Shown piece by piece: positions 31,012-32,383 of a stretch of 64,000 nt of DNA. Source of the DNA: Microgenomates group bacterium (GTDB lineage: Bacteria > Patescibacteriota > Microgenomatia > Daviesbacterales > UBA10151). The position numbers were made by a program, and so were the translations under genes. The DNA lies in assembly GCA_041659805.1 (NCBI GenBank), contig JBAZXP010000001.1, positions 64,589 through 128,588 of the forward strand. Direction: 5' to 3'. The notes beneath the pieces are model-generated. The model worked only from the letters and a program-made list of their open reading frames with translations, did not search any database and was not told the origin of the DNA. How positions within the stretch are numbered: position 1 is the stretch's first letter; every line of letters begins with the position of its first letter.

Positions 31012-31455
31012 GCTGTCTATTTGTCTATAATTACTTATAGGATCAGACTATACCTTCATCCAAATCGGTATATCAGAAAATCAGAGAATCAGCAGATCAG
31101 AAATATCTGAATCGCCGACTCGCCGAAACACTGACAAACTGAACTGGAGCTAGCCTTTTATTCAAGTTTCCTTCCGGATTATCCGGGACCTTGAATCCCT
31201 CCGATGTTACATCGGAGAAGTCGTTACGGGGCCAAATCCAGAAAATCAGAAGAATCAGAAAATCAGAAGAATCAGAAATTTCACTTTCCGATGTTCCGAT
31301 ATTCAGATTTTCAGATATTCCAAACCTAGTTTCCCTCGGTATTATCCTCACATTACTGTCAGGACTTCACCGATTTTAGCTAGTATTTTTTGTTCAAAAA
31401 GATTTCTAATTGTTATAACAGTGCTACAGAATTACTCCTGCCGCACCCCAATGTT
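31012..31455 (-). mobile_element. ORF-less ~440-bp insertion (putative group I intron or intervening sequence) in 23S rRNA at a position equivalent to E. coli ~2499/2500
   Basis: The conserved GGCACCTC|GATGTCGGCTCATCAC is interrupted here: the exons read GGCACCTC ... [insert] ... GATGTCGGCTC. The insert contains AATCAGAA(G/A) microsatellite repeats and no long ORF. Confidence 0.6.
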
Positions 31456-31981
31456 GAGGTGCCGAACGATACCGTCCTTGTGGACTGTTGGGTATCACTA
31501 GCCTGTTATCCCCGGGGTAGCTTTTATCCGATAAGCCTACTCCCTCCCACGAGGTAAGTAGGGATCACTAAAGCCTGCTTTCGCACCTGCTCGACTTGTA
31601 AGTCTTGCAGTCAAGCACACTGTATACTTTTGCGCTTAAATCTCCGTTGCCATTGGAGATAAGTGTACCTTTGCACTCCTCCGTTACTTTTTTGGAGGAA
31701 ACCGCCCCAGTTAAACTGCCCGCCAGACCTTGTTACGGTGCCAGATAATGGCTACCGCTAGAGATTTAAAAATCTAAAAAAGAGGTGTTTCATTGTCGCC
31801 TAAGCTCCCTCCTACTCTACATAAATAAATTTTCAAACCAGGGCCAAGCTACAGTAAAGCTCCACGGGGTCTTTTTGTCCAAGTATGGGAAGGCCGCATC
31901 TTCACAGCCACTGCAATTTCGCCGAGTCTATCCTCAAGACAGTTCCTAAGTCGTTCTACCTTTCGTGCGGGTCTGAACTCC

Positions 31982-32383
31982 ATTTTAAAACTGTCATTCT
32001 AAAATGAATATACGCACAACTTTACAGTCGTGGTATCTTCTTCTTCAAGCCTTCGGCTTGTAGAATAAATTTTAGAAGTCTTACATTTGTTTTTATGATT
32101 TAATGATTTTTAAATCCTCTACATCGCTATAGAGATCGGACTATATCTTGCCCCGATTGCTCGGGACTCCAACGTGTAGTCTCTGAGGGTTCCCTTACGG
32201 GCCTTCCCTGCTGATTGACTCCACTGATAGATTGTCACTCTTACGAGTACTATCAGATACTGAGTTATTCCAGCATATAGTTGGATTTTCACTACTTAAG
32301 GTTTTTTGCATACTAATCTAGCAATTTTCAACGAATTCCCGAGTGTTGTACATTGCTGTACATTCTAGCAAGTTTGTTTCCGC
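31982..32383 (-). mobile_element. ORF-less ~400-bp AT-rich insertion (putative group I intron or IVS) in 23S rRNA at a position equivalent to E. coli ~1917
   Basis: Exon sequence CCTTGTCTGGTAGGT...[insert]...GGAGTTCAGACCCGCACGAAAGG corresponds to E. coli CCTTGTCGGGTAAGT|TCCGACCTGCACGAATGG. The intervening ~400 nt has no rRNA homology. Confidence 0.55.

Follow-up and report, generated by a model that had tools for sequence, protein, structure and literature searches.

A 64,000-nucleotide (nt) stretch of contig JBAZXP010000001.1 (positions 64,589 to 128,588 of the forward strand; assembly GCA_041659805.1, Microgenomates group bacterium), here called the window, carries a 23S rRNA gene that is broken by two large inserts. 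The question raised by this locus is whether these inserts are introns that are excised with ligation of the exons, intervening sequences (IVSs) whose removal leaves a fragmented 23S rRNA, or expansion segments that are kept in the mature molecule. Comparison with related loci makes it very probable that both are group I introns without a homing-endonuclease gene, in the 23S rRNA of a member of the Candidate Phyla Radiation (CPR). They are referred to below as intron A and intron B, and were placed as follows.

30629..34429, minus strand: 23S rRNA gene, host gene of both introns (Rfam LSU_rRNA_bacteria, 2242.7 bits, model positions 1-2925; alignment to E. coli rrlH)
31981..32387, minus strand: intron A, probable group I intron without an open reading frame (ORF) at L1951, in the helix-71 loop, 407 nt (Rfam Intron_gpI; P1 and P10; homologues)
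31013..31456, minus strand: intron B, probable ORF-less group I intron at L2500, in the peptidyl-transferase-center region, 444 nt (alignment, Rfam, covariation)

The gene measures 3801 nt with both introns, against a model of 2925 positions, and its exons sum to 2950 nt. Global alignment to E. coli rrlH revealed only two large inserts, of 444 nt after position 2500 (window 31456..31013) and of 407 nt after 1951/1952 (approximately 32387..31980). This agrees with the initial annotation, which had described inserts of ~440 and ~400 nt interrupting two conserved strings; both strings were found, on the minus strand. The alignment to E. coli 23S that it had proposed as a check fixed the sites at 2500 and 1951/1952. 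The first site, given as ~L2500, was correct, with the insert lying after U2500. The second, given as ~L1917, was not, because helix 69 (CUAUAACUG) is uninterrupted upstream of intron A and the insert sits in the loop of helix 71, at L1951. Both are indeed recurrent intron sites: L1951 is a named hotspot (1952), and introns at L2500 occur in dozens of Patescibacteria metagenome-assembled genomes (MAGs). The inserts had also been described as unrelated AT-rich sequence. Their G+C content is lower than that of the exons (38.1% and 39.2% versus 47.5%), but unrelated they are not, as both match the same group I covariance model.

Two relatives of the window were informative throughout. The nearest genome in a GTDB scan, among the matches listed, is a Candidatus Daviesbacteria MAG (locus L078) with 23S exons 94-97% identical, and on the basis of this genome and of the gene context the host belongs to the CPR/Patescibacteria. 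The second relative, L001, is a metagenome contig from an independent ENA assembly that is 99.9% identical to the window. Both introns are present at the same sites in L001 and L078. The genome of the window is represented in ENA ERZ27249449 and SRA SRR18595301.

The junction of intron A is ambiguous by eye (GGU AGGUGCGG ... AAAAUGG AGUUC). It was fixed by the pairings P1 and P10, by the homologues at the same site in L078 (83% identical) and in the Patescibacteria MAG L075 (71% identical), and by a related gene, L196, that has no intron there. The internal guide and the helices of the intron are the following.

32364..32374, minus strand: internal guide AACUU/GCUAGA, intron nt 14-24 (pairing, homologue comparison)
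32117..32285, minus strand: catalytic core (Rfam alignment, covariation)
32280-32285 / 32168-32173, minus strand: core helix P3
32209-32275, minus strand: core helices P4-P5-P5a-P5b
32187-32208, minus strand: core helix P6
32177-32181 / 32139-32143, minus strand: core helix P7
32152-32165, minus strand: core helix P8
32117-32134, minus strand: core helix P9
31981..32116, minus strand: 3' extension past P9, 136 nt, 27.9% G+C (comparison with L078)

The guide segment GCUAGA (32364..32369) pairs with the 5' exon UCUGGU to form P1, in which U1951 makes a U·G wobble, and AACUU (32370..32374) pairs with GAGUU of the 3' exon to form a P10 that adjoins P1. The 5' exon ends at U1951 (32388). The AACUU-GAGUU pairing places the terminal guanosine (omega-G) at 31981, closing an intron that ends in AAAAUG, and the start of the 3' exon GAGUUCAGACC at 31980. 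In L075 the exon reads UCGGGU and the guide GCUCGA, a compensatory change of P1, while its 3' exon AAGUU still pairs with AACUU. With these boundaries the predicted mature loop of helix 71 reads GGUGAGUUC, with G at position 1952 in place of the A of E. coli. The predicted G is supported by three sets of sequences. L005, another Daviesbacteria MAG with a different L1951 intron, forms a six-base P10 against the same GAGUUC 3' exon, and several 23S genes without the intron read GGGTGAGTTCC. L196, which is 79-86% identical in the 23S and has an upstream GAPDH gene in common, reads GTCTGGTGAGTTCAGACCCGC, the exact ligated junction predicted for intron A. The alternative of ending the 5' exon at A1952, with a UAAGUU loop like that of E. 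coli and an A-U pair at the splice site, was rejected because L005 and L196 show the G of the lineage at 1952 and because the U·G placement gives canonical, adjoining P1 and P10.

Intron A matched Rfam Intron_gpI (RF00028) with 58.1 bits at 32117..32376, above the gathering score of 50, and its L078 homologue matched with 68.9 bits. In the three sequences of the family 98.4% of cells are paired, versus 32-44% in slid controls, and 12 pairs show compensatory change, versus 0-3 in slid controls; the compensatory pairs are distributed over P3 (four), P5a (three), P2 (two), and P1, P6, and P8 (one each). The spacing between P7 and P3 is only 3 nt, hence the intron is without P7.1/P7.2 and is not of the subgroup-IA type. 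In the 3' extension, ~63 nt that are absent from L078 form the hairpins CAAGCC-GAA-GGCUUG and ACGACU-GUAA-AGUUGU.

The P1 guide together with two further bases (UUGCUAGA) recurs in intron A at 32317..32324 (within 32317..32337, minus strand, intron nt 51-71); this second copy is present in L078 but not in L075. Ahead of it stands AAUUCGUUG, similar to the P10 guide AAAUUCGUUGCCGUAG of L1931 introns such as L056. This copy was rejected as the true guide, given that L075 has no complement there and that the first copy covaries with the exon. It may be a relic of the origin of the intron, or chance.

In intron B the boundary reads GGCACCU|CAACAUU...GACAG|CGAUGUCGG, where a C fits either placement. 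The initial annotation had read the 5' exon as ending in C and had taken this to argue against a standard group I intron. This reading arose from the one-base ambiguity, and the argument depended on a boundary that was misplaced: U2500 (31457) is the last base of the exon, the intron closes with omega-G at 31013, and the 3' exon CGAUGUCGG starts at 31012. The elements of intron B were placed at the positions listed here.

31443..31453, minus strand: internal guide CAUUG/GGGUGC, intron nt 4-14 (pairing)
31025..31441, minus strand: helices overall (alignment and covariation)
31426-31441, minus strand: P2
31378-31383 / 31150-31155, minus strand: P3
31336-31373, minus strand: P4-P5
31333-31335 / 31228-31230, minus strand: base of P6
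31219-31222 / 31046-31049, minus strand: P7
31199-31217, minus strand: P7.1
31160-31196, minus strand: P7.2
31144-31148 / 31059-31063, minus strand: base of P8
31025-31040, minus strand: P9

The organization of the guide is the same as in intron A. GGGUGC (31443..31448) pairs with the 5' exon GCACCU, with U2500 in a U·G wobble, and the adjoining CAUUG (31449..31453) pairs with CGAUG of the 3' exon. Rfam Intron_gpI matched intron B end to end (31024..31443) at E=1.1e-06 in a 1.6-kb search. The fold was evaluated in a set of 52 sequences, made up of intron B and 51 nonredundant short L2500 introns. Standard pairs occupy 89.1% of cells, versus 38-44% when the partners were slid by 1-3 columns, and in 43 of the 67 pairs both partners have changed. 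The covariation score of 0.404 compares with 0.146 in shuffles and was reached by none of 500 shuffles. The splice-site U·G wobble is present in 52/52 introns and the P7 pairs are invariant, in a set whose homologue search required TATAGTC and G+CGATGTCGGCTC. In P7.1/P7.2 both partners vary in each of the 15 pairs, and a MAFFT alignment gave 70-73% paired cells. These two helices, which have also been noted for L2593 introns (Haugen et al. 2007, PMC1995217), give intron B an IA-type architecture.

The absence of a homing-endonuclease gene, already noted in the initial annotation, was confirmed. No ORF of at least 60 amino acids (aa) was found in intron A, and the two mechanical ORFs of intron B (84 and 62 aa) lie in repeats and gave no Pfam match at E<=1. 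A tblastn search with 40 ORFs from long L2500 relatives against introns A and B returned nothing credible. Neither intron carries a LAGLIDADG, GIY-YIG, or other homing-endonuclease ORF, and in both the gene is absent, not decayed in place. The initial annotation had considered degenerate introns that still splice; splicing is strongly favored, but "degenerate" does not describe introns in which the ribozyme folds are conserved and only the endonuclease gene is missing.

Both inserts have the core helices P3 to P9 with covariation, a P1 with a U·G pair, an omega-G, and a P10, and from these elements we infer, with high but not complete confidence, that they are excised and the exons ligated; whether this happens autonomously or with the help of protein is likewise a matter of inference. 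In the pre-23S rRNA, each internal guide would pair with the end of the 5' exon in P1, with the splice-site U in the U·G wobble. An exogenous guanosine bound in P7 would attack the 5' splice site. The terminal omega-G would then take the place of the guanosine in the pocket while P10 holds the 3' exon, and ligation would yield a continuous 23S rRNA reading ...GGU-GAGUUCAGACC... and ...GGCACCU-CGAUGUCGG... at the two junctions.

Several points weigh against this interpretation. Excision and ligation were deduced from sequence and structure only. The family of intron A comprises just three distinct sequences, which makes its covariation statistics thin, and in the set of intron B the invariance of the 3' strand of P7 and of omega-G arises partly by construction from the search pattern. 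The Rfam score of intron B, 34.5 bits, is below the gathering score of 50. Its homologue in L078, which is 308 nt long, 86-90% identical in the core, and without both hairpin expansions of intron B, scores 59.0 bits, so the low score is explained by the expansions and not by a degenerate core. Moreover, a good fold is no guarantee of splicing, given that a title cited as reference 28 of PMC11270868 calls the L1931 group I intron in the 23S of Simkania unspliced. That title is also what speaks for the possibility that introns A and B are group I in origin but no longer splice, being kept in the mature 23S as expansion segments. We consider this improbable. The P1 guide, the U·G wobble, the P10 guide, and omega-G are conserved and covary with the exon, and related lineages such as L196 have L1951 alleles without the intron. 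U2500 and C2501 lie within what we take, from established ribosome structure, to be the peptidyl-transferase center, where a retained insert of 444 nt would be hard to square with function. In addition, a statement in PMC9698310 that cites Brown et al. 2015 reports from metatranscriptomes that CPR rRNA insertions are generally absent from transcripts, having been removed.

The IVS alternative put forward in the initial annotation, in which RNase III would cut out the inserts without religation and leave a fragmented 23S, is highly improbable. The inserts do resemble IVSs in being ORF-less extra 23S sequence of lower G+C than the exons that is predicted to be removed from the mature rRNA, and the long hairpins of intron B, which are similar to those found at the helix-45 IVS site of another CPR gene (L100, see below), might be substrates for RNase III. 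However, the sites are the helix-71 loop and U2500 rather than the tips of helices 9, 25, or 45 (PMC11270868), and no terminal stem of the IVS type is present: the end-to-end duplex of intron A has -14.7 kcal/mol versus -10.7 ± 3.0 kcal/mol in shuffled sequences and that of intron B -10.5 versus -11.3 ± 3.0 kcal/mol, both within ~1.3 standard deviations. Complete group I cores with P1, P10, and omega-G only make sense for splicing with ligation. Of the covariance models proposed for checking the inserts, Intron_gpI was matched by both, and no group II family was listed in a permissive Rfam scan of 30900..32500 (E<=10). A dependence of splicing on protein, either a host factor or a LAGLIDADG protein of the maturase type encoded elsewhere, such as in the other rRNA introns of the genome, is a variant of the group I interpretation that we regard as possible but doubtful. 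It is suggested by the lack of an own ORF in both introns, by LAGLIDADG proteins encoded in or near other RNA genes (41486..41914 and 39869..40663), by the LAGLIDADG intron that a near-identical strain carries in the same 23S gene, and by the large peripheral expansions of intron B, which could slow folding. The cores are nevertheless complete and rich in the GNRA-capped peripheral helices typical of self-folding introns, and nothing links any LAGLIDADG protein to introns A and B. The window comes from a metagenome-derived genome, and rRNA regions of the CPR are hard to assemble. Even so, the chance of an assembly artefact or a 23S pseudogene is negligible, since the same two introns occupy the same sites in three independent assemblies (the window, L001, and L078), the exons match the full bacterial model (1-2925), and a leader/trailer processing stem flanks the gene.

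The distribution of L2500 introns was explored with a scan of one genome per species for the pattern TATAGTC, 18-48 nt, GCGATGTCGGCTC, which returned at least 120 loci. The matches listed are mostly from Patescibacteria (dozens of MAGs), and several are labelled as other phyla. By contig label, the latter include Actinomycetes, Thermoleophilia, Planctomycetes/Pirellulales, Omnitrophota, Acidobacteriota, Chloroflexi, Gammaproteobacteria (with a Coxiella endosymbiont among them), and one archaeon MAG; the MAG labels are as given, and binning errors are possible. Among the matches listed, the inserts fall into two length classes of ~250-400 nt and ~770-920 nt. Most of the long ones contain a sense ORF of 150-225 aa whose start, ~80-170 nt from the 5' end of the intron, falls in the P6 region; such an ORF is present in ~40% of the family. 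Intron B shares with the family its site, the P1/P10 guide, the P2-P9 architecture, and P7.1/P7.2, and belongs to this widespread group with ORF-less and endonuclease-bearing forms. Its closest member among the matches listed is the L078 intron, and among the same matches it is itself the longest ORF-less member below 450 nt, owing to repeat hairpins on P6 and P8. Literature searches on "L2500" introns found nothing relevant.

The relatives of intron A are of a different kind. A scan of metagenomes for its core blocks (CAGAGACTACA...AAGATATAGTCC) revealed no new L1951 member of the family among the 120 loci listed; the pattern is also common to introns at L1931, L1917, L1923, and L2604 and to 65 loci that could not be mapped to 23S. 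An nhmmer profile of the family gave full-length matches only to L078, L001, and L075 among 243 fetched loci. The P3-P9 core is most like that of introns at L1931, L1917, and L2262 (L056, at L1931, with 140 bits; L121 with 111; L021 with 110). Like the L1931/L1917 group, which Haugen et al. 2007 (PMC1995217) regard as IC1-like and as having a complex P5, intron A has an extended P5 region and no P7.1/P7.2. It differs from the L1931/L1917 introns (Thermotoga, Simkania, Synechococcus) in being located 20 nt downstream, with another guide and no ORF, and its 5' end has P2 and P2.1-type helices that L1931 introns such as L056 lack. The other introns at L1951 (guide GAAUUGCCCGA, often ORF-bearing; L012, L079, L087, L005, L024, and L041) scored at most 45 bits against the profile of intron A, which indicates that this site hosts two unrelated intron lineages. 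Intron A may have arisen from a core of the neighboring L1931/L1917 type that was retargeted 20 nt downstream by a new guide, with P2-type helices added. The published L1951 intron of Coxiella burnetii, Cbu.L1951, occupies the same 23S site and is likewise a group I intron, but with its 720 nt and its gene for a LAGLIDADG protein of 157 aa (Haugen et al. 2007, PMC1995217) it differs from intron A, which has 407 nt and no ORF; the two are likened here by published description.

Intron B is ~136 nt longer than its homologue in L078 on account of two hairpin extensions, on P6 and P8; a further copy of the P8 type is found in the 23S leader.

31228..31335, minus strand: hairpin extension of P6, ~100 nt (Tandem Repeats Finder [TRF], alignment of relatives, minimum free energy [MFE])
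31059..31148, minus strand: hairpin extension of P8, ~80 nt, same repeat type (TRF, alignment of relatives, MFE)
34453..34506, minus strand: further P8-type repeat hairpin, in the 5' leader of the 23S gene and enclosed by the processing stem, 83% identical to 31073-31126 (54 nt)
30580..30607, minus strand: 3' arm of the 23S processing stem, partner 34629-34656, 86% complementary (inverted repeat)

Both introns lie in the pre-23S transcript whose limits are indicated by the processing stem formed by leader and trailer. The extensions of intron B consist of repeats with an 8-nt period, with UCNGAANA in one arm and UUCUGAUN in the other (TRF), and the motif is overrepresented in the window and restricted to the 23S transcription unit. 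The P6 extension occupies the position of the ORF in the endonuclease-bearing L2500 relatives; other L2500 introns are also expanded at P6 or P8. The sense strand folds better than its complement in all three hairpins (MFE of -35.0 versus -18.3 kcal/mol for P6, -40.1 versus -22.8 for P8, and -30.7 versus -16.7 for the leader copy), and each has 6-8 G·U pairs. The difference between the strands indicates that the hairpin structure is a property at the RNA level.

Similar elements occur in relatives. L100, a Ca. Jorgensenbacteria 23S gene, has a 116-nt insert at the helix-45 IVS site (oriented ~3815..4060, E. coli ~1163-1245) that forms a very similar hairpin of 8-nt-periodic UCAGA/UCUGA repeats. 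L078 is without octamer repeats. Three of its peripheral loops have instead one hairpin motif in common, ACGUUYA-GUUUACA-URAACGU; two of these loops, P5b and P8, belong to the L1951 intron, and the third is P6 of the L2500 intron (oriented ~3067-3195 and ~3978-4007). At these positions the window has short GNRA hairpins or octamer repeats. This suggests that lineage-specific hairpin modules accumulate in discarded segments of pre-rRNA, and the different hairpin of L078 fits with such modules replacing one another. More speculatively, the hairpins of P6, P8, the leader, and L100 might be one small RNA-level module that spreads or expands specifically within the discarded parts of CPR pre-rRNA (leaders, peripheral loops of introns, and IVS sites), and could conceivably offer an entry site for a double-strand-specific nuclease that clears the excised RNA. 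Literature searches on repeat hairpins in rRNA introns found nothing relevant.

Some further repeats were observed in the same regions. In the 23S 5' leader (34440..34620, minus strand), the segment that separates the mature 5' end from the processing stem holds further short repeats in tandem, some (CCUGUAA)n-like and some (AUCGGCGA)n-like. Other octamers are repeated in the L2500 intron of L100, as (ACGCGGAU)n and (AUCAGCGU)n in the P5 region. In original coordinates, the hairpin region of L078 lies within 3861-5088.

The comparison with L001 revealed variation between near-identical strains. L001 and the window differ at seven positions in 12.8 kb, clustered in two mobile-element regions. 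Three of the differences (41618-41629) affect the LAGLIDADG ORF within the 16S intron and two turn the P9 pair U31037-A31028 of intron B into C-G; the remaining one is a 2-nt insertion in the 3' tail of intron B (31018). The changes in intron B, that is the P9 pair and the 2-nt insertion or deletion, are all L078-like, and are explained equally well by a short recombination tract and by independent mutation. A third intron, 706 nt in length (12818..13523), interrupts the 23S gene of L001 after U2656 in the sarcin-ricin loop (CUAGU|...AAUG|ACGAGAGGACC). It encodes a 153-aa LAGLIDADG_1 ORF and gives a weak Rfam group I match of 29.7 bits; its core resembles that of intron B, and the P7.2 hairpins are almost the same. 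Its site corresponds to the published CPR hotspot "2657". The window has an empty L2656 site at ~30854/30855 (minus strand), which shows that the presence of introns varies between near-identical strains.

The window is gene-dense bacterial DNA of ~37% G+C in which the rRNA genes are unlinked, with protein genes between them (16S at ~41.3-43.6 kb, 23S at 30.6-34.4 kb, and 5S at 27.6 kb), and its LAGLIDADG genes lie inside or adjoin RNA genes. Apart from the introns, the 23S gene has smaller inserts relative to E. coli, of 52 nt after 290 (34087..34138) and 28 nt after 1535 (32792..32819), both on the minus strand, and deletions of 18-27 nt at about 1727-1747, 2131-2157, and 2779-2796. These differences are consistent with the reduced or altered rRNA of the CPR known from the literature. 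The 16S gene (41328..43625, minus strand) is interrupted as well. Its Rfam match stops at 42234 and the true 3' end is at ~41300-41346, reading AAGTCGTAACAAGGTATCC and then CACCTCCTTT. The insert of ~874 nt lies between CACACCGC (ends 42293) and CCGTCA (starts 41418), near E. coli ~1400, and encodes a 142-aa LAGLIDADG_1 ORF (41486..41914). No Rfam intron family matched it at E<=0.01; in position and ORF type it agrees with the group-II-like "16IS9" class of Tsurumaki et al. 2024. A 264-aa LAGLIDADG_3 ORF (39869..40663, plus strand) begins within the 3' end of tRNA-Cys (39816..39890), and is either a free-standing endonuclease gene or has a miscalled start.

Introns A and B are ordinary for a CPR genome, and the kind of element they represent is already known (Tsurumaki et al. 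2024 and, cited therein, Brown et al. 2015). Insertions were found in 82% of CPR 23S genes, 433 of them (45% of insertions) being group I by Rfam, with 222 ORF-less group I introns counted (Tsurumaki et al. 2024, PMC11270868). In that survey LAGLIDADG-rich hotspots are located at 1917, 1931, 1952, 2593, 2604, and 2657, and group I sites cluster in domains IV and V, some of them not reported in other bacteria. The site of intron A is its position 1952 (23IS8); position 2500 is unnamed in the text, and the positions of 23IS9-11 are given in figures only. Insertions were delimited in the survey relative to E. coli rather than from splice sites, and its text describes neither the guides nor the two L1951 families nor the expansions by repeat hairpins. 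By 2007, the intron sites known from bacterial 23S genes were L1917, L1931, L1951, and L2593 (Haugen et al. 2007, PMC1995217).

The present analysis contributes exact splice sites and guides, support from covariation, the distinction of two lineages at L1951, an indication of how widely the L2500 family occurs, and the hairpin modules. For annotation, exact exon-intron boundaries are now available, from which the mature 23S should be a normal, continuous molecule of ~2950 nt, and this corrects the impression of something noncanonical at L1951 and L2500. At the level of the families, L2500 is a site of group I introns in many bacterial MAGs, both ORF-less and endonuclease-bearing, and one of the two unrelated L1951 lineages shares its core with introns of neighboring sites. 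Finally, the differences in intron content between near-identical strains, together with the compensated pair in P9, point to evolution of these introns on a short timescale under selection for RNA structure.

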